Virus record (IMG/VR): IMGVR_UViG_3300036987_000202 | Coordinates: 7,253 to 71,252 of that record | DNA from: a virus | Lineage: Duplodnaviria; Caudoviricetes | Direction: 5' to 3' (one strand) | DNA: 64,000 bases | In this document: positions 869-58,740 of the stretch, piece after piece | How the letters are laid out: each line of letters begins with the position of its first letter | Position numbering within the stretch: position 1 is the stretch's first letter | Made by a program: the position numbers and the translations under genes | The notes under the pieces: generated by a model | The model's input: only the letters and a program-made list of their open reading frames with translations | Databases searched by the model: none | Told to the model about the DNA's origin: nothing

Positions 869-901
869 GTCTAAGCAGTGATTTTTTTCAGGCTTCACAG
901 G

Positions 902-956
902 TGGTCAATTATTTTCAAACTTCCCAACGGTTGAGAAGTTTGAAAATAATTGACCA
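902..956. repeat. 55-bp near-perfect palindrome
   Basis: Perfect 21-bp arms TGGTCAATTATTTTCAAACTT (902-922) and AAGTTTGAAAATAATTGACCA (936-956); pairing continues to the centre (929) with one mismatch. Confidence 0.9.
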
Positions 957-966
957 TTTATTGCTC

Positions 967-1057
967 TCTACTAAACATCTACTAAATCTCTCCTAATCAT
1001 CTCCCTTGACGAAAAACGCTTCATTACCGCTCCATTAATCCTCCATTAATGCTCCAT
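967..1057. repeat. Two sets of short direct repeats with 11-bp period
   Basis: TCTACTAAA at 967 and 978, variant TCTCCTAAT at 989; CTCCATTAAT at 1030 and 1041, partial copy at 1052. Confidence 0.7.
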
Positions 1058-1247
1058 GTTGACGATAAACGCCCATCTTGTCTCCAGAAAGTACACCAGG
1101 GGCATACTCCCAGGAGAGAATACCCCCTTGGAATATAAGGGAGTCCAGCACAACAACGTGCAACACTGTTGTAGATTGTTGCCTTTTAACAGAAAAAAAG
1201 TGGTAGGGCTGTCAAGGGCTACCATATTATTGCTGTGTTTTTTACAG

Positions 1248-1276
1248 AAAAAAAAGCCGCCCCTGGGGGGAGCGGC
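1248..1276 (-). terminator. Rho-independent terminator closing the late/lysis operon
   Basis: Minus strand GC-rich stem (GCCGCTCCCCCCAGGGGCGGC) followed by a T8 run, just after the last lysis-region gene. Confidence 0.7.
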
Positions 1277-1321
1277 ATGAAATGGTGGTAATGGGTGGGT
1301 GAGTGGGTGATGTGGGTGCGT

Positions 1322-1726
1322 TTATAACGCCAATAAAACCAGCCCGATCTTGCCCAGGAGAGCCAGGATCCCGCCGGTGCCCAGACCATAGAGAAAATAC
1401 CTGGTCTTTTCCTTGGTGGTTGGCTCATCCTTATAGTGAATGACGAGCGTATTATTCACCACCTCGCATGAAGTAAGATTGCGTATCGGTCCCAGGTCGA
1501 GCGTTTCCACCAGGGATGCGCGTCGCACGGTGACCACGGCATGATCCTTGCAGACCTCGCAGCGCACCGGCAGCGACTTCTCCTCCAGGATCGCGGTATA
1601 GTCCCGGGCGTCCTTCATTACCCGGTCATACTGCGCCCTCAGCTCCGGCGGCACCCAGGATGGGGCCGCCTCACCGGGTAAGGTCGTCAATATCGCGCTT
1701 GAGGCGAGCAGCATGGCGCAGATCAT
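1322..1726 (-). CDS. Membrane-anchored protein, possible spanin component
   Basis: Probable start MICAMLL at 1726; hydrophobic N-terminus and C-terminal TM segment; overlaps the upstream small TM gene; follows holin and endolysin. Confidence 0.4.
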   Translation of the reverse strand: MICAMLLASSAILTTLPGEAAPSWVPPELRAQYDRVMKDARDYTAILEEKSLPVRCEVCKDHAVVTVRRASLVETLDLGPIRNLTSCEVVNNTLVIHYKDEPTTKEKTRYFLYGLGTGGILALLGKIGLVLLAL

Positions 1727-1895
1727 CCTCGCGCCGCGGATTCTGTATCGTTCCATTGATGGTTGAACCTCCCCTATTGTCTGTGCTGGTAATCCATGTC
1801 CATATCCCGAAAAGGGCACCCGCCACGGCCCCTATCGCCAGGACCCACCTACCGAAGGTCTTGAGGATCCGCGGGAGCAGGCTTGTTTTTGTCAT
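1671..1895 (-). CDS. Small single-TM protein, possible spanin component
   Basis: Start MTKTSLL at 1895; TM segment WVLAIGAVAGALFGIWTWI then a charged helical tail. Confidence 0.4.
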   Translation of the reverse strand: MTKTSLLPRILKTFGRWVLAIGAVAGALFGIWTWITSTDNRGGSTINGTIQNPRREDDLRHAARLKRDIDDLTR

Positions 1896-2163
1896 ACCAG
1901 GTATAAATGGTGATCCACGCAGCCACAAAGCCCAGCAGCGTGGCAATCATCGTGTCGGTCAATTCGATGTGGCGGGTTTCGACAAAGACCACGATGGCCA
2001 TAATGATCTTGGCAAAGACCGCCAGGACCACGGGGAAGAGAATCAGGGATATCCAAAAGAAGGGCGGCCTGAACTTTCCCTTGTTGTAGCAAAAGGCTTG
2101 AAACACCGCGATCAGCCTATGGCCGATGCGGGAGAGAAACGACTTGCTTGAGCGCATCGTCAC
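1849..2163 (-). CDS. Putative holin
   Basis: 104 aa, two hydrophobic helices, basic N-terminus, adjacent to the peptidase. Confidence 0.55.
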   Translation of the reverse strand: MTMRSSKSFLSRIGHRLIAVFQAFCYNKGKFRPPFFWISLILFPVVLAVFAKIIMAIVVFVETRHIELTDTMIATLLGFVAAWITIYTWYDKNKPAPADPQDLR

Positions 2164-2798
2164 GCCTCCAATGTGTTATAGAGTTTTAAGGCAATCTTTC
2201 TCATGCGGCCCCCCGAGTAGACGATTTTCTTGAAATCATCCAGGGGCATCGGCACGCTGTCGCCGTTATGGTCCTGGTACTTGGTCCGGTAATCGCCATA
2301 CGGGTCATCGATAACCAGGGCGGCGAGCTTCGCCTGGTCCACCTCCTCCGGCCCGTGGATCGCCAGGATGTTCTCCTGGGTAGTGTCAAACCCAACGACC
2401 GTGACAATGTGCCCATACACGGTGAAATCACCCCCGATCACGACCGCGGCCTGCTCCTTGACGATATGAAACATGATATCCTTGATCGAGGTGTTGTTGT
2501 CGGTAATACAGATGCGCCTCCCGGCAACCTTGTTGGCCACCCATTCCAGCATCGGGGAGACATTCCAGGGATGGCACGTCGCCCCGGGGAACCGGCGGGA
2601 GAACTCGGCCCGGGCCTCGGCACCCTCCAGGATCCCCATGAGATAGTCCTCGGCCTGGACGCCCTCGGGGGTCACCAGGCGAATCCCCGAGGCGCGGCAG
2701 GCGTTGATCACCGAGGTTACGTTACAGGACGCCCCCGGACGCTTGGCGTTATCCCGCTGGGTGGCATACTCGTTCTTTCTGCTAATGTCGTAGCGCAT
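2160..2798 (-). CDS. C39-like cysteine peptidase, putative endolysin
   Basis: Cys-His-Asp motifs SCNVTS, YGHIVTVVG, IDDPYG; position in the lysis cassette. Confidence 0.65.
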   Translation of the reverse strand: MRYDISRKNEYATQRDNAKRPGASCNVTSVINACRASGIRLVTPEGVQAEDYLMGILEGAEARAEFSRRFPGATCHPWNVSPMLEWVANKVAGRRICITDNNTSIKDIMFHIVKEQAAVVIGGDFTVYGHIVTVVGFDTTQENILAIHGPEEVDQAKLAALVIDDPYGDYRTKYQDHNGDSVPMPLDDFKKIVYSGGRMRKIALKLYNTLEA

Positions 2799-2833
2799 TG
2801 CGGCTGTCCTCCAGGTCAGATGATATCATGGTC

Positions 2834-3235
2834 TTATTTTTTAAGCCAGATGGCCAACCCCAGGGCGATGGATACCACCGACACGATCAGCGTGGCCAGC
2901 TTCATCCAGTCTGTGAGCTGTGCATCCTTCGTCTTAATGACCTCCATGTGGGGCACCACCTGGTCGGTGATAGCCCCCAGGATGGTTTTATGTTCCGAGG
3001 AGCGCTGGACGTGCTCGGCGCGAAACGTCGATTCAAGCTGGGTAAACACCGCCTTCTCGGTGACACAGTGCTTTTGCCGGATGAGGTTTGACAACTCCTT
3101 CATCTCGGCGGAAATGCACTTCATGGCGTCATCCTGCATATCAAGCTGCGAATACACCTTGGAAAGGGCCTCGACGGTCCTTTCCTGGATAGAGAGCACG
3201 CGGTCAAAATTGTCCTGCGCCTGGTCGTCACTCAT
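2834..3235 (-). CDS. Coiled-coil protein with C-terminal TM helix
   Basis: 133 aa helical protein ending LATLIVSVVSIALGLAIWLKK. Confidence 0.55.
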   Translation of the reverse strand: MSDDQAQDNFDRVLSIQERTVEALSKVYSQLDMQDDAMKCISAEMKELSNLIRQKHCVTEKAVFTQLESTFRAEHVQRSSEHKTILGAITDQVVPHMEVIKTKDAQLTDWMKLATLIVSVVSIALGLAIWLKK

Positions 3236-3584
3236 GGTAGGTGTCCAGTAGATAGTTTAGGTGCATCTCAGTGATGGCCAGCCGGTTGGTATTTGACTTT
3301 TCCATGGAATAGCCAATCAACAGCGATGCGGCGGGCAGGTGCATCCTACGGAAGATGATGATGGTAGTGTCAAGTAGCAGCCGGTAAATATTTTCACCAA
3401 TTTCAAAATAATCTGACCGCACCAGGGCGTCATGCAGGTCCGTGCGATCAGCATAGGACAGGGTGCTGGAGATAATCACCGCATCACCGCCGTTTTCCGG
3501 TGCGAACACGATCACCAGGTCGCGGGGATCGCCGTAGGCCAAATACCTGGCCATAAGGGGCATGATGTCTTTTACGGTAACCAT
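3228..3584 (-). CDS. Hypothetical protein
   Basis: 118 aa, RBS-like GAGG, overlaps the next gene. Confidence 0.55.
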   Translation of the reverse strand: MVTVKDIMPLMARYLAYGDPRDLVIVFAPENGGDAVIISSTLSYADRTDLHDALVRSDYFEIGENIYRLLLDTTIIIFRRMHLPAASLLIGYSMEKSNTNRLAITEMHLNYLLDTYHE

Positions 3585-3591
3585 AGGATCC

Positions 3592-4713
3592 TCAAAACTT
3601 GTTCACAAACGCGCTGAGTGAAAGTTGATAGGGCATTGCCCAAATGTTTCCTTCTATACGAAGGATGGTCACCCCGTTATTGGGGATGCCATAGATGAAA
3701 CCACCGGGATTCACTATTCCGCCGCACCACTTGGTATTGCCGGTCAACGTCCCATATTTCCTGGTAGCGGTCCCCGCGATGGGATCAATCACCAGTATGT
3801 CAGTAGCAGTGGAGGGAATACCGTAAATCTTTCCATCGGGGCCGAGCACGCCCCCATTCCATCCCAAACCCGATGATAGACTCGCCCCCATGGTGCTCCT
3901 GGTTGCGGTCCCGGTTGCTGGATCGATGATGAGAATATCTGGACTCAATGACGGAATACCATACATCTTACCATCAGGCCCAAGCACGCCCCCTCGCCAT
4001 TTCTGGTCGTTGGTTGCCGAGGGGAACGACGCTCCCATGGTGCTGCGGGTGGCGGTGCCCGCCACGGGGTCAATGATGAGGATATCAGAAGATTGATACG
4101 GGATACCGTAAATCTTTCCGTCAGGCCCGAGTACCCCCCCATTCCAAAGCTGTCCATATGGTCCAAGAGAGAGATCAGCCCCCATCGTGCTGGTGGTCGC
4201 GGTGCCTGCCACGGGGTCGATAATGAGGATGGTGGACGTTTCCCATGGTATCCCATATATTTTCCCGTTGGCAGCGAGTACCCCCCCCTGCCACTTCTGA
4301 TCAGTTGTTAGCGTTGCGCCCATGTTGCTGCGGGTTGCGGTGCCTGCCACGGGGTCAATAATGAGGATATCCTGGGCAGAATTTGGGATCCCATAGATTT
4401 TACCATTGGGATGGAGCACACCGCCATACCACTTATAATTGCCAGTGAGGGTTGCGCCCATCGCGCTGCGGGTGGCGGTGCCTGAGATGGGGTCGATGAT
4501 GAGAATGTCGGTGGATGTAAAAGGGATCCCGTAGATGTTCCCGTTGGGGGCAAGCACCCCTCCTTTAAACTTTTCTCCTGTCGCAAACGTGGCTCCCATT
4601 GCTGAAGTCGAGATGCGCACCACATCACCATCTGGACCAAGAAGTGCCTCAATGCGCCTGCGCCCCGCTCCGAAATATGGTTTCCAGTTTTTATTCCAGG
4701 TAAATAGAGACAT
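3592..4713 (-). CDS. 7-repeat beta-propeller protein B, putative receptor-binding module
   Basis: Seven ~45-aa repeats W-x-GGVLGPDGKIYGIP...ILIIDP; lies after the tail fibre. Confidence 0.75.
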   Translation of the reverse strand: MSLFTWNKNWKPYFGAGRRRIEALLGPDGDVVRISTSAMGATFATGEKFKGGVLAPNGNIYGIPFTSTDILIIDPISGTATRSAMGATLTGNYKWYGGVLHPNGKIYGIPNSAQDILIIDPVAGTATRSNMGATLTTDQKWQGGVLAANGKIYGIPWETSTILIIDPVAGTATTSTMGADLSLGPYGQLWNGGVLGPDGKIYGIPYQSSDILIIDPVAGTATRSTMGASFPSATNDQKWRGGVLGPDGKMYGIPSLSPDILIIDPATGTATRSTMGASLSSGLGWNGGVLGPDGKIYGIPSTATDILVIDPIAGTATRKYGTLTGNTKWCGGIVNPGGFIYGIPNNGVTILRIEGNIWAMPYQLSLSAFVNKF

Positions 4714-4725
4714 GATGGAACCTCG

Positions 4726-5847
4726 TTAATATTTATTCAGGTAGGCGCTTAATGCTAGGTGCTTTGAACACATCCATAATGATCCCTTGATCATGCCGAC
4801 CTGGGTGGACGTGCGGGGAATACAATAGATGGTCCCGTTTGGATGCAGCACACCACCTGAGTAGGGATTGGCACCATCACTATCCACTTCCGAGAGTATG
4901 CGTTCCGCGGTGTTCAAAAGAGGGTCAATCACCAGCACATCGTTGTTTGCAGATGAACCGATCATGCAGTATATCCGACCATCGGGTCCAAGCACCCCAC
5001 CCGTCCAGTTGGGGTTTGCGGTACTTACTCCATAATCAGCCAGGGATCGACGGGTGAGTGTGCCCGCGAGAGGATCTAAAATGATCACACCATTAGAGGA
5101 ATTTGGAACGCTGTATATTTTTCCATCAGGCCCGAGTACGCCGCCCTGGTTTCCCGAGAGGGTGCCCCCATACCCAAAAGTGCTTTCTGTGGCTGTGTCG
5201 GTAGTGGGATCGATCACCAGGATAGTGTTTTTACTGGCAGGCATCCCATAGATTTTACCGTCAGGCCCAAGCACGCCGCCCATCCACTTGCCAGTCCCGG
5301 TCATCGTCAGCCCCATGGTTGACCTGGCGGCGGTGCCTGCGGTGGGGTTAATAATGAGAAAGTTATTTGAATTATACGGGATGCAATATATTTTTCCGTT
5401 GGCCGCAACCACGCCCCCTGCCCATTTCAAATAATCCGAGAGGGTGGCCCCCATGTTACTCGTTGTGGCGGTGCCCGCCACGGGGTCAACAATGAGAATT
5501 ACATCGGAATAATGCGGAATGCCATATATTTTTCCGTTATGTCCGAGTACGCCCCCCCAATATGAGCTATCACCATTTATCGTCGCCCCCATCGAATTTC
5601 TGATTGCGGTATTGGTGAACGGGTCGATAATCAGCATTTGTGTATCGGTAAACGGCATACAATATATCTTATTATCGGGTCCAAGCACTCCACCGTGGTA
5701 TTTTTCGCCAGTGCCAAAACTTATTCCAAAGGCAGATTTCCGGCCACGCGGATGGTCACCATTGGGACCAAGCGCATACTCCCTTAAATAGTTACGCATC
5801 GCGTTAAAATGCGGTTTCCAGGTGCTTGTCCAGACTTCGCCCGCCAT
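4726..5847 (-). CDS. 7-repeat beta-propeller protein A, paralog of B
   Basis: Same repeat seven times, same length (373 aa), matching termini (WKPHF/WKPYF; LSAYLNKY/LSAFVNKF). Confidence 0.75.
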   Translation of the reverse strand: MAGEVWTSTWKPHFNAMRNYLREYALGPNGDHPRGRKSAFGISFGTGEKYHGGVLGPDNKIYCMPFTDTQMLIIDPFTNTAIRNSMGATINGDSSYWGGVLGHNGKIYGIPHYSDVILIVDPVAGTATTSNMGATLSDYLKWAGGVVAANGKIYCIPYNSNNFLIINPTAGTAARSTMGLTMTGTGKWMGGVLGPDGKIYGMPASKNTILVIDPTTDTATESTFGYGGTLSGNQGGVLGPDGKIYSVPNSSNGVIILDPLAGTLTRRSLADYGVSTANPNWTGGVLGPDGRIYCMIGSSANNDVLVIDPLLNTAERILSEVDSDGANPYSGGVLHPNGTIYCIPRTSTQVGMIKGSLWMCSKHLALSAYLNKY

Positions 5848-5857
5848 GGGTCACTCC

Positions 5858-7909
5858 TTATGGTAAACTCATCCAGGATATCGTCGGCAATGGGCTGCCC
5901 TTGTGCGTGCCATCGGTATTGTGATCTACGTTCAGCCAATCCGAGAGTGACCGGCCAACCTCATGTAAAAAGATTGAACGACTGTCCACATTTACGATGG
6001 GGAGCAGCGTGTTGAACTCCAGGTAGTATGTGGCAATCGTCATGCCCGAGGGAAACTTGACTCTCCCGTTCACCACGTCGATGCCGATATGGTTGTAATA
6101 CTCCCAATTCGTCCAGGTGGTGTCGTTGCTGAAATCGACCGCCATAATATCCAGACCCGAGGACCAGAATCCCGTGTCATCACCAGGGGCATGCACCGGA
6201 ACCAAGCGCGTGCCCGACTCGGTGAGAATGTTCACCACACTGGCTCCGCTGGACGATCCATAGAGGCCCGCCTGTGGCTTATACATCTCACGGAAAGCGA
6301 TGGTCGTGCCGTTACTGCCCAGGACTGGTGTGGCCCCCGAGGTGAAACCGATCACATAGGCGTGATAGTGATAGGTTTGACCCGCCACCAGGGTTGCCGT
6401 AATGTCTGCATACTTCCAGGACGCATCAGCAAAGTCAGCGATGGCGATATCAATGGACCCGAGAGAGTTATTGCCCGCGTCATGCAAGACGATCCTTAAG
6501 TGTGTGTAGCCAGATCCCTTGGTCTTTACATACAACCCGACTCGATTGTGGGTCGTGGCAAATAACAGGCCCGTTGATACCGTAAACGGGGCGCGGTCTG
6601 CTGTGTCCTCGCTCAAGGTGGTGAGCACGCTGTAATTTGATGAGGTGGTTTCCTGCTTCTGGTCCAGGCGGGATACAGGGTACTGCTGCTCCTGCTGGAA
6701 GCGCTCCAGCGAGGCACCGATGTCATTGGTCAGATTGACCGGGAACAGGCTCACCAGGCCCCGGCGGTTGGTAGCGTCACCTGTGACGGGTAAAATGCGG
6801 GCATAGGCCCCTCGGTATTTATTGAGTTTTTGTGCGGTCTTGCTGCGGGCGTCAGAGGAAAGATGGACCCATTCCACACATCCATCAGGATGATCCAGGG
6901 GGAGCGCGGTGCGGTGGTCGCTGTAGCGCGGCAGGGTGGCTACCGTGGTTGATTCGCTGGTCCAGGTGGCGCGGTCGTCGAGATCCTTGACGTTCGACGG
7001 CAAAAGCGAGGTGGCGTTCACCGGCACCGTGACCTCGGCAACCTTGAACCACTTGTTTTCCCCGAGGTACTCGAGGCGATACCCGGCATAGCCAGTGACG
7101 CCCAGGATAAGCTCCGCGGCATCGAGTTGCTCCTGGGCGGGCTGGCGCAGGTAGACCACGGAGTTTTCCCCCAGGCCGGGGGCCGTGATCTTGAGGTGGT
7201 TGGATCCGTCGTTGGACGCGAGGACGCCGATCCCCGCGACATTGATTTTGTTAATGATTTCCGCCAGGGTGGTCGTTGCAGGGACAGCGCCGCGGCAATC
7301 GATTTCCACGAACTCTCCGTCAACTCCGCAGGCCAGGGTTAAAAGATACCTGGTCGTAAAATTGAGCGGGCTTGATACGGCAACCGTCCCCGTGATGCTT
7401 CCTGCCGTTGCCGCGGTAGTGGTGGGGACGCTTCCTCCGGCGGTGCCTTTTTTCACCCGCAGCACCAGGTAGACCTCGCTGTCGCGCTTCCTGGTAACCG
7501 GGGTGACTGTTTTCTCACGGGCGTCGGCAATATAGACCAGGTTGTCGTTTTTGGTGTCCCTCCTGGATATACGCGCTTCCACGATATCGTACCGCTGCTG
7601 GGCCTCCCCCGCGTCGAAGGTAAGGGAGTAATTAGACCCCGCGTTGTAATCCAGACAGAATTTCAGGGTGTCATCCGTGAGCATCTGGACCACCGAGGCC
7701 GGTGCGGTGAAGGGCACGGTCAGGGTGGCGATGGTGCCCTTGCGCAGCCCCTCCAGGACCGCGGCATCGACCGAGGCATTTTTATATAACATGCCGCGAA
7801 TCAGGACCTCCAGGTCCCGCAGGGCCATCTCCCCTATCCGTGTCACCACAAGGTCGTGCTCCAGGCGGGCCTTGGCGGTTTGATTGACGATGCGCAGGTT
7901 CTTACCCAT
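5858..7909 (-). CDS. Tail fibre / baseplate-attached fibre protein
   Basis: 683 aa, Thr/Ala/Gly-rich, follows wedge genes; VTVPVNATSLLPSNVKD segment and C-terminal DHNTDGTH motif. Confidence 0.65.
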   Translation of the reverse strand: MGKNLRIVNQTAKARLEHDLVVTRIGEMALRDLEVLIRGMLYKNASVDAAVLEGLRKGTIATLTVPFTAPASVVQMLTDDTLKFCLDYNAGSNYSLTFDAGEAQQRYDIVEARISRRDTKNDNLVYIADAREKTVTPVTRKRDSEVYLVLRVKKGTAGGSVPTTTAATAGSITGTVAVSSPLNFTTRYLLTLACGVDGEFVEIDCRGAVPATTTLAEIINKINVAGIGVLASNDGSNHLKITAPGLGENSVVYLRQPAQEQLDAAELILGVTGYAGYRLEYLGENKWFKVAEVTVPVNATSLLPSNVKDLDDRATWTSESTTVATLPRYSDHRTALPLDHPDGCVEWVHLSSDARSKTAQKLNKYRGAYARILPVTGDATNRRGLVSLFPVNLTNDIGASLERFQQEQQYPVSRLDQKQETTSSNYSVLTTLSEDTADRAPFTVSTGLLFATTHNRVGLYVKTKGSGYTHLRIVLHDAGNNSLGSIDIAIADFADASWKYADITATLVAGQTYHYHAYVIGFTSGATPVLGSNGTTIAFREMYKPQAGLYGSSSGASVVNILTESGTRLVPVHAPGDDTGFWSSGLDIMAVDFSNDTTWTNWEYYNHIGIDVVNGRVKFPSGMTIATYYLEFNTLLPIVNVDSRSIFLHEVGRSLSDWLNVDHNTDGTHKGSPLPTISWMSLP

Positions 7910-7924
7910 GGTGCGCTCCTATCG

Positions 7925-8067
7925 AAAGAGTGATACCCACGACTTTTTCACCGGGGGCGTTGGCTTTTCTGGAAAGCTCGCCAGCGCGGGATCGTCGTGG
8001 AGCCGAACATCACGCTCGGCTTGTACACGCTTTTACTCTGCGGTGCTGTGTACATAATTGTCAATAC
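7925..8067 (-). promoter_or_regulatory. Structured non-coding leader upstream of the tail-fibre gene
   Basis: Stems at 8022-28/8048-54, 8001-08/8014-21 and 7937-43/7994-8000; preceded by GTATTGAC (8060-67). Confidence 0.45.
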
Positions 8068-8100
8068 TCCGTGTTTCACAATAGACTATTCAGTAGTCAG

Positions 8101-8757
8101 TTATGGAGTGATTTCATCCTGGGTTACAATTAATGTATAATCAACTCCCGCCACAACCAAGCGATCCAGGAGATCGAGCACCAGGGGGATGCTGGTATTG
8201 GGGGTGTTCTCCAGGAGTACGGTGATGGAATATATGCTCCCCGCCAAGGCCATGGTGACGGCAGGGAATACCCATTCATCGCGCATAACCGGTGACACCA
8301 CCTGGAACTCGGTATAGACATCTGAAAAAGATTGATCGGCGTAGGCGGAACCTTCCTGACCTTCATAAAGAAGTGGCCGGTTGGGGAACGAATACGGGAC
8401 CAAAGCATTGATGATCGCTGTGGGAGATACTTTATGACCCAGGATGATTTCCGTCACCCGGCGCTGGTAATCGGCGTCACTCTCCCCGCTCCCGCGCACG
8501 ATACCCAGGTGATCGGACACGATCATCGATAGAAACACGCCCTGGGCGGTGTCGAAAAAGAGCATCTTGATCAACGACTTGGTGAGCCTCCGGTTCCATT
8601 CCACCACCGAGGCCAGCGCCCCCATGTTGAGGTCCATCGGGGTGGAAATCACCGGGGCCGGGACGCCGGTATAATCGGCAATCAGCGACCGATATACGGG
8701 GTCGTTTTTACTGAATACCGCGGCGAGGTCCTTGTTGATCTGATCGACTATTTTCAT
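8101..8757 (-). CDS. Baseplate wedge protein (P2 gpI-like position)
   Basis: RGSGESDADYQRRV motif; directly follows the J-like gene. Confidence 0.65.
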   Translation of the reverse strand: MKIVDQINKDLAAVFSKNDPVYRSLIADYTGVPAPVISTPMDLNMGALASVVEWNRRLTKSLIKMLFFDTAQGVFLSMIVSDHLGIVRGSGESDADYQRRVTEIILGHKVSPTAIINALVPYSFPNRPLLYEGQEGSAYADQSFSDVYTEFQVVSPVMRDEWVFPAVTMALAGSIYSITVLLENTPNTSIPLVLDLLDRLVVAGVDYTLIVTQDEITP

Positions 8758-8760
8758 GGT

Positions 8761-10182
8761 CTACTCCGTGACGGTGACAATGGTAACGGTTATCAGCCCG
8801 CCCGTTCCCGATCCCGTCCTGGCGACGTAGTTGCTGCTGATGGGGATGTTCACCGAGGGACTGGTGATTGCAACATCGTAGACCGCCAGGTGCGCCTTCT
8901 TTGCCAGCATGATGATCTCTGACAGGATTACGTCCTGGCCCAGGCCCCGGGTGTTGATGTACTGCTCGATGGCGGAGCGCACCGCCAGGCTGATTTCCGT
9001 GGCATCCGAATTTTCCCCCTGCCGGTAGACGGTAATGCTCATGTTGACCGGAGACACCTGGGGCGCATCGACGTTGGTGAGTATCCCCGCGGCTCGGTAG
9101 CCCGGGTAGTTCACGATATCAAAAGGGTCGCCATCGAGGACCTTTTTAATGAGGTCCTTCATGTCATCGGAGAGCTGGCCGGTGCCGTCATCGGCCACGA
9201 TGGTATTGTAGCCGGGAACCGGATGGCGTTCCCGCACGGTGACTGATTTAATGCCGGTGATCCCGAGGACCGCGGCTTCCTGGCCCTTTTTCGTGGATCC
9301 CGCGAGGCCCTGGACATAGACCTGGAAGCGATACGCACGTTCGGCGTCGGTTTCCTCATTCTGCCCGTTGGCAAAGGCGCTGTCGTTGATGACATACTCG
9401 ATGCCCTGGAGTGCGGTATTGAGTACGCCCTTGCCATGGCGCGTATCGATGGCATGAGCGTTGATGTTTCCGATGATGCCTGGGGATATACACTGTGCTA
9501 ACAGGGGACCCGTGTGCGCTTTCCCGGCGGGAATAGACCCGTTGGCGGCGACCTGGTAGGTGATGTTATCCAGGGTGATGCTGACACCCGCCATGACGGG
9601 CTGTGACGCCAGGGCAGGCCCCAGGAGCAGATCGATGCCAAAGTTGTTCAGGTAATCCCGTTGGCCGACCATTTCCATGGTGGCATAGCGATAGAGCAGA
9701 TTGGACGCGCTACTTCCAAATTGCACCAGGGATGCCTGGTAGGACGCATGAGCGTCTATCGCCGTCACTAGCTCGGCAATCGTAGGATAGGTCGTGAAAT
9801 TAAGGGAAAGATCATCCCCTATCGCTCCCGTGACCGTGATCGTCAGGGTGGTGTCGCTGACCGAGAGCTTGGCGGAGCTTCCCAGGCCCGTGTAGCGTAC
9901 CGTACAGGTGGGGATCCGGTAAAAGCGGAGATGCCCGCTGGAAAAGCTGGCGCCTTTCTTCTTGAAATTGAATCCATCATAGAGCGCAATCGGAATACTG
10001 CGGCGTAGCGCTTCAAGGTAGTCAAAACCCGTCATGGACTCAACGCGGAATACCGCCTCCAGGATGGACCTGGTAGCCGATCCCTCGTTGAAATCGGTCA
10101 GCCCCACCTCGTCGGCTATAATCTTGTTTTTCGCCAGTTCGACGAGCTGTTCCGGCGTGTGGACTTTCAGTATTTCAGCCAT
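8761..10182 (-). CDS. Baseplate J-like wedge protein
   Basis: DFNEGSATRSILEA; G.NEETDAERAYRF...G; YRAAGI motifs. Confidence 0.85.
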   Translation of the reverse strand: MAEILKVHTPEQLVELAKNKIIADEVGLTDFNEGSATRSILEAVFRVESMTGFDYLEALRRSIPIALYDGFNFKKKGASFSSGHLRFYRIPTCTVRYTGLGSSAKLSVSDTTLTITVTGAIGDDLSLNFTTYPTIAELVTAIDAHASYQASLVQFGSSASNLLYRYATMEMVGQRDYLNNFGIDLLLGPALASQPVMAGVSITLDNITYQVAANGSIPAGKAHTGPLLAQCISPGIIGNINAHAIDTRHGKGVLNTALQGIEYVINDSAFANGQNEETDAERAYRFQVYVQGLAGSTKKGQEAAVLGITGIKSVTVRERHPVPGYNTIVADDGTGQLSDDMKDLIKKVLDGDPFDIVNYPGYRAAGILTNVDAPQVSPVNMSITVYRQGENSDATEISLAVRSAIEQYINTRGLGQDVILSEIIMLAKKAHLAVYDVAITSPSVNIPISSNYVARTGSGTGGLITVTIVTVTE

Positions 10183-50218: not shown

Positions 50219-50254
50219 CGGGTATGTTTAGTTATATGCCATTGCCCCGCCCCT
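50219..50254 (+). other. Left recombination site of the cassette array (attI-like or half site)
   Basis: CGGGTATGTTTA-GTTATATGCC; 50231-53 is the reverse complement (1 mismatch) of the end of cassette 1 (51890-912). Confidence 0.6.
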
Positions 50255-50321: not shown

Positions 50322-51239
50322 ATGAATTATATAATAATATCAAACTATTATCCAGAACATGACTATGATATTAGTGATGGTCAATTATTAAGAGTGGTAA
50401 AAAACCCTTATAATATTGATAATTATAAAAATGGCAAGCTAACTCCATTAAATGGTCAAATCTGGAATTATTTAATAACAATATCAGATTCCTTTGATGA
50501 TTTAAGAGATTTGATCTTTTTCCATACCTTTATAACAAATAATAGTCAAACTTATCATTATGCAGAAAATTCAAATAAGCTATCATTTGAAGATGAAGAA
50601 CTTGAATTTGTTAAAGATAGGAGTTTAATTATTGATGGAGGTCTTATACATATTGTTGATTTTAATAAATTTCCACTTTTAATGAATTGTAATCAAATTC
50701 TAGAAGAACATAAAATTTTTAAATTTATAGATTATGGTAAAAGTTTTAAAAAGTTTCTCGAATTAAAGAATGTAAAATTAAATGGAATGTCTTCAAAGTA
50801 TAATTTATATGATTTGATATGTTTATATGTTTTTGCAAAAAATTTTGAAATAACCCATAGATTATATAGAAATTCAAATATACCACTTTCATTTTATATA
50901 ACTATATTAGAAGCATTAATTGGTGAGCCTGCAAGCTGTAATTCTCCATTGCATTGTAATGAATGTGAAACAAATATTTCTCGTCATTATAAAATTACAT
51001 TAGAGAAACATTTTACTCAATATTTTAATCAATTTAAAAAGATTAGAAAGATTAGACATTCAACCTTTCATGGTGGCAGTTCTTTTGATTCTATGAAATA
51101 TTTATCAGATTTGCTTAATAGTAATTCAAATTGGGATAATGATAAAAAATATCTTCTTTACCAACATAACCGTGAAGAAATTGAATGTGTTATACGAATA
51201 TTATTAACTAGCGAATTATATAATTATTGCCAGAATTAA
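50322..51239 (+). CDS. HEPN-domain protein (ApeA-like), candidate RNase
   Basis: YITILEALIG...C..C insertion...IRKIRHSTFHGG (R-x4-H). Confidence 0.65.
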   Translation: MNYIIISNYYPEHDYDISDGQLLRVVKNPYNIDNYKNGKLTPLNGQIWNYLITISDSFDDLRDLIFFHTFITNNSQTYHYAENSNKLSFEDEELEFVKDRSLIIDGGLIHIVDFNKFPLLMNCNQILEEHKIFKFIDYGKSFKKFLELKNVKLNGMSSKYNLYDLICLYVFAKNFEITHRLYRNSNIPLSFYITILEALIGEPASCNSPLHCNECETNISRHYKITLEKHFTQYFNQFKKIRKIRHSTFHGGSSFDSMKYLSDLLNSNSNWDNDKKYLLYQHNREEIECVIRILLTSELYNYCQN

Positions 51240-51322
51240 TAATATAATATTATTTATATATGCTATCCAAGCTCAATATCGTATTTGTTTAAATTAATTT
51301 ACACTCAACAAAGAGGAATTGT

Positions 51323-51790
51323 ATGAATAAAATAATAATAATTGTTGGTCTACCTGGCTCAGGAAAAACAACCTTTTTAAATTCCGAATTCGGAAATCAT
51401 GATAATCTCATAATCTTTGATGATTACAAAGCTAGTGCAGTTCTTAATTGCTCAGATTTTACTTACAGTAAGAATTACCCAGAATTAATAAATCAAATTT
51501 GTAGCGCAGAAAAGGACATCGTCATTTCCGATATTTCATTTTGCAATTTTGAATCCTTCATTCAAAGTAAAGAAATTATTGAATGGTGGATTGAACAATC
51601 AAATAATAATTATATTATAAGGATTATAATTTTCGAGAATGATCCGGAAAAATGTATTGAAAACGTAAAGAAAGACACCAAAAAGAGAAACGTTGATGAT
51701 AGAATTAATAAAATTAAAGAATTTAGCCCGAACTTTTTTCCTAAAAAATATATAATTGATGGTGAAATACAATCGATAGGCGGCATTTAA
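51323..51790 (+). CDS. Small P-loop NTPase/kinase
   Basis: IIIVGLPGSGKTT Walker A; IFDD. Confidence 0.75.
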   Translation: MNKIIIIVGLPGSGKTTFLNSEFGNHDNLIIFDDYKASAVLNCSDFTYSKNYPELINQICSAEKDIVISDISFCNFESFIQSKEIIEWWIEQSNNNYIIRIIIFENDPEKCIENVKKDTKKRNVDDRINKIKEFSPNFFPKKYIIDGEIQSIGGI

Positions 51791-51903
51791 TTTGGAATCA
51801 AACTTAAGCATATGAAATGATTATTCAATTTATATAAATCAATGTAAATATTTCAAGCTCAACATCCTGTTTCGCTTGAAAACTTAACGGGGGCGGGGCA
51901 ACG

Positions 51904-52003
51904 GCATATAACAAAGCATATAAGCTGCGCTCCCTGCGGTCGCTTGGCCTTCGGCACATTGCGGCAAAAGGCCGCCGCAACGTCTTATATGCTTGAAACG
52001 TTA
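51904..52003 (+). repeat. attC-like site of cassette 1, interrupted by the intron in its R' core
   Basis: GCATATAAC-AAA-GCATATAAG...CTTATATGC-TTGAAAC-GTTA; removing the intron restores GTTAGGC (GTTRRRY). Confidence 0.8.
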
Positions 52004-52668
52004 GTGCGCCAAGCACAGCTTGGCGCCTCTAGCGGGGTGAAAGTCCCCGTCGGGTAAGGGCTAGCCACCCACCCGTACCGAGTGTTGCGTGATAGCCGGT
52101 AACGGTGACACGAAGCGTACACAGGGTACCATATAGGCCGCAGGGGAGACCGCACTCCCTGAAGCACATTGAGCCCCGTAATAATGGGCCTCGTTAAAAC
52201 GGGGAATACGCGGACGGCGATGTTTTTAACGTACCAGAAGCCAACATGGCGGTAGACGATATGGCAAGACTACCGTTGGTCCGTCGGGGTCAGAGAACGC
52301 GGCATGTATGGAGAGAGGCGTCAGGAACTTGGGAGACCCTGCTCGCTCCTGTGAAAGCAGGTAGGTCTATCCAATCGAAACAGAGGACGACTGATGGCGG
52401 GTGGGGAGTCGGATCAGCCCATACTACTCCGAGGACGGGAAAGCCGGCCACATGGGGAAGGGGCTGACGGAAATACGTAGTCCACAAAGGAAACCTGTAC
52501 CGGACATGCAGGACTGGATACTACAGAAAAACCTCACTGAGGAGAATAGCAAAGTCCTTCGATTTAGAAGGATTGCGGAAGCGAGTATTCTCGAAGAGCC
52601 CGGTGCGGTAATTCCGCACGCCGGGATCTGTGCGGGGGCCGCCGGGCAACCGGCGGTTCTACCGTGAC
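52004..52668 (+). ncRNA. Group II intron ribozyme without a functional RT ORF (665 nt)
   Basis: 5' GTGCG; domain V GAGCCCGGTGCGGTAATTCCGCACGCCGGGATC (52596-628) with AGC triad and AC bulge; domain VI with bulged A; 3' ...GTGAC. Confidence 0.9.
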
Positions 52669-52781
52669 GGCGCCATGTTTTTGTAACTATTTTCAGTTTT
52701 TGACATCTAAATAAATTGTTAATTGACAAAATTATTATCTAATCAATAATTCAGTCATTCTCCAACATACATGGGCATATA

Positions 52782-53528
52782 ATGAAAATTGTACAAATTC
52801 ATGCTGCGATAAATTTTAAAATTGAACCCGATATATTATTATCTGTTGGAAACAATATTAAAAAACTTCAAAAAGAAGTTAAAGTAAATGTTCAAATACT
52901 GAATGTACCTAAAGCTTCCCCACCAGAGACACCTAGAATTGTTATCTTTTCTCCAAATGCGATTATTAATATTTGCTTAAGCAGATATGATATTATTGTT
53001 AAAATTCCAAAACAGATAGAAGATAATATTGATTCTTCTTTAGATTATGCAAAAAATGTAATTACAAAATTTATTCCTTTTTTAATTCATGAGAATTTCC
53101 AATATTTATGGACAGGTATTGTTATAAATTCAGAAAAAGCTTTCGATATTAAAAATAGTAAATCGATTGAACTTATGACTCCATTTTATGATAAGCTAAT
53201 AAATATTGATCGGAACAATATGAAATTATCTTCTTTTCAGTTACAATTTGGTTTTGAGGAAAATAATTTATATAAAAACTATACCATTTCTGGATATGAT
53301 AAAATTAATATAGCGATTCCAGGTAATATTATTGGAGAAAGTTCAATCACTATTGATTTGCAGAAAGCGAAAATTTCTGAGTCTGGTTTACAAGTTATTG
53401 TAGATGTTAACAATAGAACAAATATTAATGTCTTAGGCATCGATCAAGATTTTATTAATCTTTTACATGAAGTAAGTAATACATATAAATTATTACCTAA
53501 TACTCTCAACATTGAAGGATTAATATGA
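52782..53528 (+). CDS. Cassette-2 protein 1 (TIGR04255-like, tentative)
   Basis: 248 aa; PPETPRIV and VIVDVNN features recalled for this family; first of three coupled genes. Confidence 0.45.
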   Translation: MKIVQIHAAINFKIEPDILLSVGNNIKKLQKEVKVNVQILNVPKASPPETPRIVIFSPNAIINICLSRYDIIVKIPKQIEDNIDSSLDYAKNVITKFIPFLIHENFQYLWTGIVINSEKAFDIKNSKSIELMTPFYDKLINIDRNNMKLSSFQLQFGFEENNLYKNYTISGYDKINIAIPGNIIGESSITIDLQKAKISESGLQVIVDVNNRTNINVLGIDQDFINLLHEVSNTYKLLPNTLNIEGLI

Positions 53529-53899
53529 AACAATCTTATGCGACTAAAATACCAACTACTGCACCTCAGACTCCAATTTTTGATTTTTCAAGTTTTGAAA
53601 GATTTCAAGAATCAAAAACAAATGATGATGTTTCAAATGAAATAATTAATATTATTCTTAATAACGATAAATTTGAAGCTTATGTTAAGGATATGATCGA
53701 AGGTATTATATTTAACCAGTGGACAAAGCGAATGACATCTGTTACTGCAATATCAGATGATCCTTTTGATGCTATTTACATTGCAGATTTAAAACCTGAT
53801 TTCATCCATAAAAAGTATATTGAAACCCTTAAATATCATGCTTTAAATATAATTGATAAATCACACGAATTAATCATTGATGATGGCTGGGATGATTAA
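53525..53899 (+). CDS. Cassette-2 protein 2, acidic hypothetical
   Basis: 124 aa, overlaps the upstream stop, acidic C-terminus IIDDGWDD. Confidence 0.6.
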   Translation: MKQSYATKIPTTAPQTPIFDFSSFERFQESKTNDDVSNEIINIILNNDKFEAYVKDMIEGIIFNQWTKRMTSVTAISDDPFDAIYIADLKPDFIHKKYIETLKYHALNIIDKSHELIIDDGWDD

Positions 53900-54439
53900 A
53901 TGTATTTAGATAATTCAAAATTTGAAAAAGACATTTTAAGACAGGGTGACATTATAAAAAATGTCCTACTATTAGGTGCTATTAATTTAAACGGGATACA
54001 ATACAATATTGACCAACAGGGGAATAAGAAAGGGTGGACAGTATCACAACAACCTAAATTTTCTGAAGCAATTGTACTTTCTCACTCTTGTGAAATTGAT
54101 ACTAGTAATAGAATAAAATTAACAAGTATTATTCTTGCTCCTTTAAGGGATATCAATAAAGCAACCGCTAAAACCACAATAGATGAATTAAAAAGTAGTA
54201 ATATTATTAATTCAGATACTAAATTTAGTTTCTTAAAATACTTTTATATAGAGCCTAATTCATTTTTAACATATCCCGATGGTGCTATCATTGATTTTTC
54301 TAAATGTTTCAGTGTAAAAAAAGAATCATACAATAACCTTTTAACAAATAAAATTCTCTCCCTAACAAATGAAGCAGCTGATTGTATGGCTCTTAAATTT
54401 GGGTTATACTTTTATCGTAACACCCTTCACGTCGCATAA
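53900..54439 (+). CDS. Cassette-2 protein 3, possible toxin-like protein
   Basis: LRQGDII...IVLSHSCEID...IIDFSK motifs; starts right after the upstream stop. Confidence 0.5.
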   Translation: MYLDNSKFEKDILRQGDIIKNVLLLGAINLNGIQYNIDQQGNKKGWTVSQQPKFSEAIVLSHSCEIDTSNRIKLTSIILAPLRDINKATAKTTIDELKSSNIINSDTKFSFLKYFYIEPNSFLTYPDGAIIDFSKCFSVKKESYNNLLTNKILSLTNEAADCMALKFGLYFYRNTLHVA

Positions 54440-54444
54440 TAATA

Positions 54445-54510
54445 CAAAAACACGGCGCCCAACTAAGCATACCCGCTTCGTCGCTGCACTCCTCGGCCTT
54501 CGGAAAATCG
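54445..54510 (+). repeat. Truncated attC-like site of cassette 2 (5' half only)
   Basis: AAAAACACGGCGCCCAAC is complementary to the restored cassette start GTTA/GGCGCCATGTTTTT; CTCGGCCTTCGG matches attC1; 3' arm missing. Confidence 0.65.
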
Positions 54511-54728
54511 CCCAGGACTGCATCAGTCCATTATCCAGAATGGTATAATGGTGTTTTGCCATGTCCTAGGGGCGTGGCCGGGCGCAGGGGTCCAGGTCAA
54601 ACTCTCCTAAGACTGCCAGGATATCCGGTAGGGTCAGCCACTCATCCTTTCCCATGCGTTGTGATTGATTGATGCCCGCACATGCCGCGGCCAGGTAGTG
54701 CGTCGATATTGAATAGCAGGCTATTCAT
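54510..54728 (-). pseudogene. Phage Dam-like N6-adenine methyltransferase remnant
   Basis: GHQSQRMGKDEWLT.PDIL..LGEFDLDPCA...RP*...HYTILDNGLMQSW; 4-nt duplication frameshift, internal TAG, truncated before NPPY. Confidence 0.75.
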
Positions 54729-56359: not shown

Positions 56360-56636
56360 ACAGAGCCTCCCTCAATTCCATCCGTTGCCCCTCGCTCAAT
56401 CCCTCCAGGAACCGCTCCCAATTCCCCACGGACAACCTGACCGCCTTGGATACCATCAGCACATCGCTGGCAAAGCGGGTTTTCCGGTTCCAGGTGGACA
56501 GGGTGGCATACATCTGATCCATTTCAGTCGCTGGGACAAAGGGGTTGACTGAGCATATCAGGAGCCGGGTGTCACCGGCCTCGATACGCTCAAAGGTGCA
56601 GCCCGAGCGCAGGATAAATTCCATCGCCTCGGTCAA
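56346..56636 (-). CDS. Hypothetical protein
   Basis: 96 aa, overlaps the portal stop. Confidence 0.5.
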   Translation of the reverse strand: MTEAMEFILRSGCTFERIEAGDTRLLICSVNPFVPATEMDQMYATLSTWNRKTRFASDVLMVSKAVRLSVGNWERFLEGLSEGQRMELREALCGYC

Positions 56637-58321
56637 TGGATTATCGTCCTCGCTTTAATAAAGCGGAGAGCCTTCTGCATGGTGGCGTCCACATCATCCA
56701 TGGCCTCGTCAACGATGGAATCCATATCGTCTCCCTCCTCCTGGCCCGCAGCACTTGCGTCCTCGCCCTCGCTCGGGAAGCCGCCCATCTCATCGCCGCC
56801 TTCACCAGGCGCACCGCCCTCCTCGGACTGCTGCTGCATCTGCATATTCTGGACATGCTGATAATAGATGGAATTGAGCACGACCTCGCCCTTTTTATCC
56901 GGCAAGGGCGGCATGTCCGCCTCGGCGCGAATCTCATCTATAGTCATGTAGGATTCGACACGATCCTTGCGCTGCTTGATCTCGTTGTCCCGGTCCCGGG
57001 GATTGAGGCCCGTGTACTCAAAGACATACTTATCCTTCCATCGGGTCCTCTTGAGAATCTTATTCCAGACGTTCGCGTGCGCTCCCAAAAGATCGATCAG
57101 CCCGCGGTCCTTGGAGAACTTCATGCGGGAATCCTGGTTTTCATTGAGCACGTTGGTTGATGAGGAGAATTTCAGGCCCGCCTCCATAAGGTCGAAGCCA
57201 AACACGGAACCGATGAGGCTTGCGGTGAACTCCAGGTACTTCTGGTACTCCATTTCCCGGGCACTCTTATTCATATCGAGCACCTGGACATCGCTGTTAA
57301 ATAACGGGATGCGGAATGCCGCCTTGGTGCCGTTGAAATTAGCCATCCACTCCTCTTGCATGGCCGAGAGCTGTTCCGTGGAAAAACCCCCTTGCTTGAA
57401 CGCCAGGGCTATTTTAGGGAGGGACCCGAAACTAAAATTATCCTGGTTGTATGCCATGGCATAGAGAAACGCCGTAATCACGGACATGGCCTGCTCCAGG
57501 GGAGAGTAGCCGAATCCCCGGTGGCGCACGTCCACCCGTCGCTGCATGAAATCGTACACAAGGTCCTGCCGCTTGAACCCCGCGGTCAGCCGCCCCGCGA
57601 TCTCCTGGACAAAGCGGATCTCTTTCACGTCCTCGGGCACCAGGTCCAGGCGGGCCGCCAGGATTTTCATGTCCGGGTCATCGTTGGACAGATACGCCCG
57701 CGGGTCGAAATCGGTGCGCTTGCCCTTATACCCTGTGGGGTAGACCCGTTTGATGGTCGCCCCGTCCAGCATCCAGAAATCCACCAGCTCGCCCTTGCGG
57801 TCGGTGCGCAGCTCCACGGCCACCTTATCGATGGTCAGGTACTCCCGGGCCATCTGAATGTTCACGTCATGGAATGAATCCTCGCGCTCCTCCCAGTCCT
57901 CAAAATCGGTACGCCCGCAGTTGGTAAACCAGTCGGTAATCTCCTGCATTTCCTTTTTGTCAGCCTTGGTGGGGGTGTATTCGGGGTCCTTGGTCCTGAT
58001 CCTCCAGCCCGGCAGGTCATCGCTCTCCTGGGGCGAGGTAAAGGCCCTGAGCTGGCGGCACCTGGTATTGATGATCAGCGACACGATGGGGTTTTTGTGC
58101 TCGATCTGGCGAAGGATGCGGTCCTCGATGAAAAACATCCCTTCCTTGATTCCGCGGTCGCTATACAGCGAGTACTGGTCCTCCAGGAGTCCCCGGGTGG
58201 GGTGGATCACCCCGGGGGTTTTCATGGGGTCCTGGGCCTTGGCAAGCAGGCCGATACTTTGTTGCAACGCCTCCTGTGAAATATCGGGGAACGTCGTGGT
58301 CACACTGGCAAGCTCGTTCAT
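56633..58321 (-). CDS. Portal protein
   Basis: LDGATI, GFGYSPLEQA, YMTIDEIRAE motifs; probable start MNELAS at 58321. Confidence 0.9.
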   Translation of the reverse strand: MNELASVTTTFPDISQEALQQSIGLLAKAQDPMKTPGVIHPTRGLLEDQYSLYSDRGIKEGMFFIEDRILRQIEHKNPIVSLIINTRCRQLRAFTSPQESDDLPGWRIRTKDPEYTPTKADKKEMQEITDWFTNCGRTDFEDWEEREDSFHDVNIQMAREYLTIDKVAVELRTDRKGELVDFWMLDGATIKRVYPTGYKGKRTDFDPRAYLSNDDPDMKILAARLDLVPEDVKEIRFVQEIAGRLTAGFKRQDLVYDFMQRRVDVRHRGFGYSPLEQAMSVITAFLYAMAYNQDNFSFGSLPKIALAFKQGGFSTEQLSAMQEEWMANFNGTKAAFRIPLFNSDVQVLDMNKSAREMEYQKYLEFTASLIGSVFGFDLMEAGLKFSSSTNVLNENQDSRMKFSKDRGLIDLLGAHANVWNKILKRTRWKDKYVFEYTGLNPRDRDNEIKQRKDRVESYMTIDEIRAEADMPPLPDKKGEVVLNSIYYQHVQNMQMQQQSEEGGAPGEGGDEMGGFPSEGEDASAAGQEEGDDMDSIVDEAMDDVDATMQKALRFIKARTIIH

Positions 58322-58326
58322 CGTTA

Positions 58327-58740
58327 CTACCTCTGTCCTCGGGGTTTCCACCGTCTGCGTGCAGACCTGTTTCGCTCCCGCTCACACTCCCGGCAATAGG
58401 TGCGCAATATATATTTGGTGCGCGTGTAATCCAGCTTCCAACCAAACGCATACGAGGGCAGCTCCAGGTTACAATCACAGCACCGCTTTGTTTCCTGGTT
58501 CTCCCTCGGCAGGTCGGCATAATGCCCGTTACTGACCGTCTTAAAGACCTCGCTCTTTTCCTGGGCCTCCTTTGCTTGCCGTGCCAACTCCATATCCCGG
58601 TAGCTTTTGGCAATCAGGCGGTGCATCACCTCGCTGGCCGGGGGTGGGGCAATTTCCTTGAATCCGCTGACCATCAGTTCTCTCCTCGCTGCCGCCGGGA
58701 AATCACCCCGATGGGTTTGGTGGGGAATAGTATCTCGCAC
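58327..58740 (-). CDS. Cys-rich zinc-binding hypothetical protein
   Basis: KRCCDCN...YCRECERE; between terminase and portal. Confidence 0.5.
   Translation of the reverse strand: MRDTIPHQTHRGDFPAAARRELMVSGFKEIAPPPASEVMHRLIAKSYRDMELARQAKEAQEKSEVFKTVSNGHYADLPRENQETKRCCDCNLELPSYAFGWKLDYTRTKYILRTYCRECERERNRSARRRWKPRGQR

Follow-up and report, generated by a model that had tools for sequence, protein, structure and literature searches.

A cassette-sense group II intron in the R' box of an attC-type site on a phage contig, and its relatives in chromosomal integrons

Introduction

To our knowledge, textbooks and reviews recognise three ways in which bacterial group II introns select their targets and tie the targeting of integron attC sites only to class C and to the bottom strand. 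The introns concerned, the IIC-attC introns, enter the bottom strand of attC at TTGT/T of the R'' box and lie antisense to the cassettes (PMC3001079, PMC7923331). Introns of other classes that stand at attC in the orientation of the cassettes have been hinted at in print (Sonbol and Siam 2021; PMC7923331). UHB.I2, an intron of class CL1/IIB1 from hypersaline samples, lies just downstream of attC in cassette sense, and the same paper describes the class E fragments H.ha.F1 and H.ha.F2, both truncated at the 5' end, from a Halorhodospira array without an integrase. Here we describe a group II intron without an open reading frame (ORF) that occupies the R' box of an attC-type site on the cassette-sense strand of a phage contig, together with its relatives in chromosomal integrons. 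The DNA analysed is a stretch of 64,000 nucleotides, hereafter the window, that comprises bases 7253-71252 of the 71,252-bp IMG/VR virus record IMGVR_UViG_3300036987_000202, which CheckV estimates to be 79% complete and which has no end repeats.

Group IIE and IIF ribozymes are relevant to this case. They span 450-700 nt without their ORF, are otherwise IIB-like and have a five-base loop in domain V as a trait of their lineages (PMC3753933). Their exon-binding site 1 (EBS1) is full, unlike that of IIC introns, in which it is shortened (PMC3753933).

Results

A group II intron splits the R' box of an attC-type site

A first-pass annotation of this DNA, made from its letters alone, had located a group II intron within the R' core of attC. 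Rfam matches and the division of R' as GTTA/GGC bear this out (Table 1). The group-II-D1D4-6 model is covered in full by a match at 52040-52299 (153 bits), and the domain V-VI model RF00029 matches at 52594-52668 with 32 bits (E=2.5e-4), a hit found under relaxed thresholds that does not reach the gathering score of 40. The general landmarks of group II introns are present, namely GUGCG (52004), AC (52667-52668), the triad of domain V and the bulged A of domain VI. The 5' junction, ...GAAACGTTA/GTGCG at 52003/52004, and the 3' junction, ...CCGTGAC/GGCGCC, are those read previously, except that the 3' end had to be corrected by one base, to 52668/52669. The boundaries are unambiguous because the last exon base (A) is unlike the last intron base (C). 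Excision of the 665 nt, which hold no reverse transcriptase (RT) ORF, yields GTTAGGC, a complete R' box. It also restores, as had been claimed, the complementarity with the far end of cassette 2, since the post-excision stretch pairs with 54439-54459; compared without gaps, the sequences match at 19 of 25 positions and at 18 of the first 20.

The insertion point is directly preceded on its 5' side by a hairpin, and all five ORFs of the two flanking cassettes are on the plus strand, as is the intron. Both observations agree with the earlier reading, and so does the strand, which is the opposite of the one entered by IIC-attC introns (at TTGT/T in R'' on the bottom strand; PMC3001079, PMC7923331).

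The window intron is not a IIC intron but is IIB-like with features of classes E and F. Class C was rejected because ~547 nt of the ribozyme lie before the ORF site, the loop of domain V is of five bases, and EBS1 pairs with intron-binding site 1 (IBS1) over 6 bp. The first-pass annotation had implied IIC as the class for comparison, and this part of it has to be abandoned in view of the IIB-like ribozyme with its E/F features and of the 6-7 bp EBS1-IBS1 pairing of the lineage. At 665 nt the intron falls within the 450-700 nt range of the IIB-like class E ribozymes, and its five-base loop is a class E trait that class F has as well. Domain V of the relative L010 folds to the same shape, and the intron-encoded protein (IEP) of that relative (429 aa) consists of RVT_1 and GIIM only, the endonuclease domain being absent. 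Some of the RT relatives come from genomes of Pseudoalteromonas and Syntrophomonadales, and class E is the class of Ps.tu.I1 and Sy.wo.I1. The genomes of the relatives loosely suggest membership in class E, and class F may apply instead.

The intron matches its site through EBS1

EBS1 of the window intron, UAACGU, is perfectly complementary to the six bases that close the 5' exon, ACGUUA (51998-52003). An alignment of 25 related introns shows that the two elements covary: UAACGU faces ACGUUA in both phage copies, UAACGCC faces GGCGUUA in the gammaproteobacterial clade, CAACGCC faces GGCGUUG in L012, UGAAUU faces AAUUCA in L005 and UUUAGU faces ACUAAA in L004. The close relatives L004, L005 and L042 are located at non-attC sequences that match their own EBS1. 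Judged from these alignments, site choice appears to be ordinary EBS1-IBS1 guidance over 6-7 bp.

The same phage carries a full-length copy

A second copy of the intron lies outside the window, at contig positions 772-1318 on the minus strand, and is 79% identical to the window copy over nt 1-547. It adjoins the same kind of hairpin, at ...GACGTTA/, and continues into an RT ORF that matches RVT_1 and is cut by the contig end after 265 residues. The window copy retains a degenerate trace of approximately the first ten ORF codons, followed by the last ~118 nt, and is an internal-deletion derivative. DNA searches with the intron in plasmid and phage collections returned only short matches to conserved pieces in uninformative context, and an IEP search of viral contigs found a single distant relative, whose site is not attC.

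The phage hairpins belong to an environmental attC family

Across the three phage sites R'' is ATATAAC, GCCTAAC and GCCCAAC, and R' is GTTAGGC once the intron is removed, a pair of boxes of the attC type. R'' is followed after one base by a perfect L stem of 10-11 bp, the other arm of which stands 4-5 bases (ending in AC) before GTTA. The ends of all three phage cassettes are complementary.

When metagenomes were scanned with the loop motif, the phage site type was found in arrays whose sites are 0.7-1.8 kb apart, at most five of them on one contig. The asymmetry of a 1-nt versus a 4-nt spacer is conserved in this family, the loop motif is near-invariant (e.g. L252, L246, L273 and L312), and the start and end of a cassette are complementary at the R box over at least 10 bp. 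Sites are at the 3' ends of cassettes and the complementary ends meet across the crossover, which is the array arrangement of attC. Every empty family site examined ends in ACGTT(A/G) (36/36). In 25 family loci ~90% of the ORFs of at least 80 aa are co-oriented with the site, and the stop codon is typically a few bases before it. One metagenome contig (L325) holds an intron 3' end followed by a typical family cassette start and represents a third occupied site of the family; the last 45 nt of the window intron, the domain VI region, are identical there.

Two other accounts of the hairpin were rejected. A terminator or repetitive extragenic palindromic (REP) element is contradicted by the cassette arrays that the family forms, and the idea that the intron brought the extra bases before GTTA is contradicted by the empty family sites, which carry the same bases.

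The environmental family is large and was met at metagenome loci L226-L340. A scan of viral contigs with two loop motifs gave matches in coding sequences or unrelated hairpins and no related arrays. The 18-nt loop motif (51926-51943) also occurs within unrelated-looking hairpin loops at viral loci L214, L216, L217, L219 and L221.

A further AT-rich cassette, a single one, is found elsewhere in the phage near the left contig end, at contig 1480-2470 on the minus strand (locus L343, contig 1-9000). It encodes a 310-aa protein without a family match and has a complete attC that carries the full-length intron; each of the phage contig's two complete attC sites holds an intron. The hairpin of this locus is located 3' of the AT-rich body and the other edge is only GTTAGGC, without a hairpin, the outcome to be expected if the cassette had entered a secondary GTT site. 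The layout fits the standard polarity, which predicts it, and not a reversed one.

Relatives occupy the same place in chromosomal integrons

With the partial RT as query, 79 genomic loci were retrieved. About 30 of the 79, at 52-55% amino acid identity, are inserted at ...GGCGTTA/GTGCG behind attC-looking sequence in Psychromonas, Shewanella, Psychrobium, Motilimonas, Nitrincola and others. The first-pass annotation had proposed that the sites of relatives be tabulated, and the table returns the same place (GGCGTTA/) and not unrelated sites.

The orientation of these copies can be read against intI. The Psychrobium chromosome offers three independent anchors. Its intI (464 bits, exceeding the NCBIfam cut-off) is at 1,647,943-1,648,890 on the minus strand, directly upstream of two plus-strand intron copies, 2.4 and 9.5 kb into the array, which are divergent from it. 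Two degraded plus-strand intI loci each have minus-strand intron copies that point away. At L010, intI is followed by cassettes on the strand of the intron, each ending in TAAC-AAG...GGC-GTTA, and some of these sites are empty while one is occupied by the intron. An alignment of 19 sites folds to the canonical attC shape with compensatory changes in 13 of 18 pairs, and its bulged bases lie on the gene-sense 5' arm, that is, the bottom-strand 3' arm, as in the textbook arrangement of attC. A covariance model trained on these 19 gammaproteobacterial sites gave 61 matches in the loci of the relatives, 42 of them outside the training set, and all 61 were on the strand of the intron (61/61). These data firmly establish insertion at R' on the sense strand for the lineage as a whole. 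The polarity check, with relatives facing away from intI, leaves the orientation proposed by the first-pass annotation unreversed.

The three intI genes of the Psychrobium chromosome (G001), one intact and two degraded, are at 1647943-1648890, 2974900-2976835 and 3242431-3242841; one of the degraded genes is split by ~1 kb, and every intI is followed by an array holding copies of the same intron. Several Psychrobium and Psychromonas attC sites contain, inside the R' box, a non-coding element of ~230 nt with 12-nt terminal inverted repeats, flanked by CGTTG...CGTTA (L010:7960-8215 and 8480-8740; L009:820-1080 and 1335-1590). It resembles a miniature inverted-repeat transposable element (MITE) whose target, too, is the attC core. 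Some intron copies are positioned exactly at the junction of this element and attC (edges in L012, L013, L029 and L033).

The cassettes and the effect of the intron on them

The integrase crossover falls between G and TT of R'. The intron is inserted 3 nt downstream of this G/TT, and neither the GTT triplet nor the R''-R' pairing of cassette 1 is altered, which is 4 bp with or without the intron. Since the crossover is upstream of the insertion point, the intron would travel as the first element of cassette 2. The first-pass annotation had suggested that the intron locks cassette 2 in place; this is not supported, given a crossover 3 nt upstream, and cassette 2 is immobile for other reasons, as its own attC is truncated and the contig is without an integrase. 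Metagenome contigs run past the point of truncation at 54503 into the rest of the family consensus.

At the other side of the array the edge at 50220-50237 is the L'-R' remnant of a further site of the same family, with the boundary G/TT of cassette 1 at 50231/50232. The L' of this remnant agrees at 9 of 10 bases with the L' expected from the L'' of cassette 2. Partial attC sites delimit the two-cassette array on both sides (50220-50237 and 54457-54503).

No intron-less junction and no ligated exons were found in public contigs, metagenomic and metatranscriptomic, from coal, groundwater and aquifer runs. The joints 51981 to 52632 and 52672 to 54456 that occur in public contigs stem from other family members or from short contig ends. 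A 151-nt contig of an aquifer RNA library is identical to 52259-52409, which is not evidence of transcription. In coal and groundwater contigs the attC arms and domains V-VI reach up to ~25x the summed depth of the cassette bodies, in the regions 51804-51970, 52472-52638 and 54309-54642, and both repeat families appear to be multi-copy in these communities.

The array belongs to an island of low G+C, at about 45.0-54.5 kb of the window, in a phage backbone of ~57% G+C. The island contains a Type ISP restriction-modification enzyme and two very AT-rich multi-gene units with complementary ends, 50223-50253 with 51890-51920 in unit 1 (inverted repeat I1) and 52669-52685 with 54443-54459 in unit 2 (inverted repeat I25). 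The two units are separated by the G+C-rich hairpin and then the intron. The Type ISP enzyme, directly upstream of the cassette array, is complete with Mrr-like nuclease, helicase, coupler, methylase and specificity domains, and its gene (44-47% G+C) differs from the backbone and the cassettes alike.

Table 1. Features of the intron, the cassette array and its surroundings, in window coordinates
Feature	Position	Strand	Basis
Type ISP restriction-modification enzyme, 1643 aa	45203-50134	+	Pfam and PADLOC searches
Array left edge: remnant L' arm, one base, GTTATAT	50220-50237	+	Sequence, inverted repeat I1
Cassette 1 genes: 305-aa protein without family match, 155-aa P-loop protein	50322-51790	+	ORF list, Pfam, PADLOC
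Cassette 1 attC-type site as far as the split R' (R'' 51906-51912, L'' 51914-51924, L' 51984-51994, 5-nt spacer 51995-51999, GTTA 52000-52003)	51906-52003	+	Sequence, DNA fold of both strands
Group II intron without an ORF, IIB-like with class E/F traits, GUGCG start, AC end	52004-52668	+	Rfam matches
EBS1 UAACGU in a domain I hairpin loop (loop 52222-52233)	52227-52232	+	Rfam alignment
Domain V: AGC triad, 2-nt bulge, five-base terminal loop	52595-52629	+	RNA fold (z = -4.5), RF00029 alignment
Domain VI: A 52661 bulged, 8 nt from the 3' splice site	52632-52665	+	RNA fold, RF00029 alignment
3' exon start; GGC completes R', stretch pairs with cassette 2 far end 54443-54459	52669-52685	+	Inverted repeat I25
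Cassette 2 genes: ORFs of 248, 124 and 179 aa that abut, no family matches	52782-54439	+	ORF list, Pfam, PADLOC
Truncated attC of cassette 2: R'' 54457-54463, L'' 54465-54474, half loop; L' and R' missing	54457-54503	+	Sequence, family alignment
Portal gene	56633-58351	-	Pfam search

Discussion

The observed identity and boundaries of the intron, its covarying EBS1-IBS1 match, the site and orientation of its relatives and the attC family to which its site belongs lead to one preferred explanation. The window intron is very probably a deletion derivative of an IIB-like, class E/F-type retrohoming lineage that targets the 3' end of attC on the top strand. The intron RNA would recognise its target mainly by EBS1, with UAACGU pairing to ACGTTA, where the L'-side spacer meets the first four bases of R'. 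Reverse splicing would take place after GTTA, 3 nt downstream of the integrase crossover G/TT. Being on the sense strand, the intron would be co-transcribed with the cassettes, and its excision would in principle restore GTTAGGC. Splicing from read-through transcripts is plausible because the orientation is sense and the ribozyme landmarks are intact. A maturase would be needed in trans, the obvious source being the full-length copy that occupies the phage contig's other attC site. Present-day splicing, mobility and complementation in trans are what we infer from these features.

The strongest competitor concerns present activity alone, and on origin, by past homing, it is compatible with the explanation above. 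The ORF-less copy may be an inert relic that neither splices nor moves and acts as a 665-nt spacer or polar block between the cassettes. The window copy has no IEP and about ten degenerate ORF codons are left of it, its identity to the full-length copy is only 79%, so that it is not a recent derivative of that copy, and the metagenome and metatranscriptome contigs contain no intron-less or spliced junction. Furthermore, in vitro the splicing of IIE ribozymes is reported to be exclusively hydrolytic, and in vivo they may need protein (PMC3753933). However, the ribozyme of the window copy is apparently intact, as the full D1-D4 match, domain V, the bulged A, the EBS1-exon match and the GUGCG...AC ends are all kept, together with a putative maturase-binding region at the start of domain IV. 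The identity of the last 45 nt in the independent metagenome locus L325 also argues against decay. We therefore regard an inert relic as possible but rather doubtful.

Polarity and the determinant of the target site are the two further matters on which another reading can be built. Were the polarity of the phage sites reversed, the ORF-sense strand would fold and recombine, the genes would be inverted and the intron would be in the functional 'bottom' strand. No intI was found to anchor the phage attC family, and the extra 4-5 bases beside the R box are on the ORF-sense 3' arm, which is canonically the extrahelical arm of the bottom strand. The opposite arm, however, has a 5-nt bulge beyond the L stem, ~20 nt from the R'' end, at the canonical position of extrahelical bases. 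The ~90% of ORFs that are co-oriented in the 25 family loci, with the site at their 3' end, and the single-cassette locus, with its hairpin 3' of the body and none at the other edge, likewise contradict a reversal. The intI-anchored relatives are unambiguously in the top strand, and the intron is not a IIC intron in any case. A reversed polarity is accordingly improbable. Slightly less probable still is targeting guided by structure, in which the upstream DNA hairpin would be the main determinant, as for IIC introns, and the sequence match secondary. Every attC-associated copy is indeed just 3' of a hairpin, a clear EBS2-IBS2 pairing was not found, and such a role of the hairpin for IIB introns at attC has been speculated upon (PMC7923331). 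Against it stand the EBS1-IBS1 pairing, which extends over 6-7 bp and covaries down to single compensatory changes, the shortened EBS1 of IIC introns (PMC3753933) and the close relatives L004, L005 and L042, whose non-attC sites fit their own EBS1.

Several observations nevertheless weigh against retrohoming of a class E/F-type lineage to attC, or against parts of this explanation, and should be set beside it. The activity of the intron is putative, since a maturase is missing from the window copy and the contig ends within the full-length one. Of the EBS-IBS pairings that the first-pass annotation proposed to map, EBS1-IBS1 was found, while EBS2-IBS2 gave no convincing pairing in either phage copy; this second pairing is dispensable for the splicing of E/F introns in vitro (PMC3753933). 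The assignment of EBS3 is tentative, the candidate column (intron position 288, window 52291) fitting the first 3'-exon base in 16 of 19 sequences, compensatory cases included, which is not a clean fit. The assignment to class E is provisional. The phage hairpins depart from canonical attC geometry in having a spacer of 1 nt versus 4-5 nt and no bulges in the L stem. Neither strand of the phage hairpins gives a significant match to the gammaproteobacterial attC model, and their local scores are 7.4 bits (window site) and 3.6 bits on the strand of the intron and ~0 on the other; the model is narrow, and its low scores are compatible with another attC type. No integron integrase was found on the 71-kb phage contig (79% complete) and no intI on the 25 short metagenome contigs of the family, so that polarity there rests on gene orientation and cassette anatomy.

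If the preferred explanation, homing guided by EBS1 to the top strand of attC, is carried further, sublineages may each have tuned EBS1 to one attC family (ACGTTA or GGCGTTA) and would ride as spliceable passengers, the full-length copy serving ORF-less ones and phages spreading cassettes and introns without an integrase. We put this wider scenario forward tentatively and consider it less likely than the homing itself. The case points to a second, mechanistically different route to attC, namely EBS1-guided retrohoming of an IIB-like lineage to the R' end on the transcribed strand. Such introns are removable from cassette transcripts and would be far less disruptive than IIC-attC introns, and they also supply portable homology between arrays. 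Matched pairs of EBS1 and attC family predict that a change in EBS1 changes the attC family that is targeted. The phage setting shows cassettes and introns moving beyond integrase-bearing chromosomes.

Comparison with known systems

The IIC-attC introns (S.ma.I2 type; Quiroga 2008; Leon and Roy 2009-2010; PMC3001079) resemble the lineage described here in that their proteins lack an endonuclease domain, their attC sites are entered beside the GTT/AAC core and the insertion is just 3' of a hairpin on the strand entered. They differ in belonging to class C, with a small ribozyme (~400 nt), a short EBS1 and no EBS2, and in being antisense to the cassettes, so that they cannot splice from cassette transcripts. 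The window intron, in contrast, has a six-nucleotide pairing with ACGTTA and is on the sense strand of R' after GTTA, between the hairpin and the next cassette. Reading it as a canonical IIC-attC intron was rejected, as the insertion is after GTTA of R', the orientation is that of all cassette ORFs and the class differs. The sense-strand R' insertion of the lineage is the mirror image of the IIC-attC mode.

An Enterobacter cloacae integron holds an unusual IIC intron of the same orientation, which was reported as a single oddity. Group IIE and IIF ribozymes (Toro 2002; Simon 2008; Nagy et al. 2013, PMC3753933) share with the window intron the five-base domain V loop, the size of 450-700 nt, an architecture similar to IIB and a long EBS1, indispensable to the choice of splice site; the papers on them describe no homing to attC. 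Clusters of attC sites lacking integrases (CALINs) in phages (PMC9892861) are alike in being attC cassette arrays without intI within phage genomes. The survey of these mentions no group II introns, whereas both complete attC sites of the present phage are occupied by one.

UHB.I2 and H.ha.F1/F2 are likewise non-IIC, in cassette orientation and downstream of attC or attC-like hairpins, with the endonuclease domain absent from their proteins. They are single occurrences for which no lineage-wide homing site was proposed, and the 5' truncation of H.ha.F1/F2 makes their insertion point and EBS-IBS match unreadable. By comparison with the cases of Sonbol and Siam, the window case offers both intron ends, an EBS1 match, covariation, dozens of relatives and a phage carrier. 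The first-pass annotation had proposed a different mode of attC targeting; the top strand and, in all likelihood, guidance by EBS1 sustain this, but such a mode is not new, since same-orientation introns are already in print. What the window adds is the phage carrier with both of its complete attC sites occupied, the pair of full-length and ORF-less copies in one genome, and a second attC family whose invariant ACGTTA matches the EBS1 of the phage introns. The window intron is a further and well-resolved instance, rather than the first sighting, of the kind hinted at by the 2021 paper.

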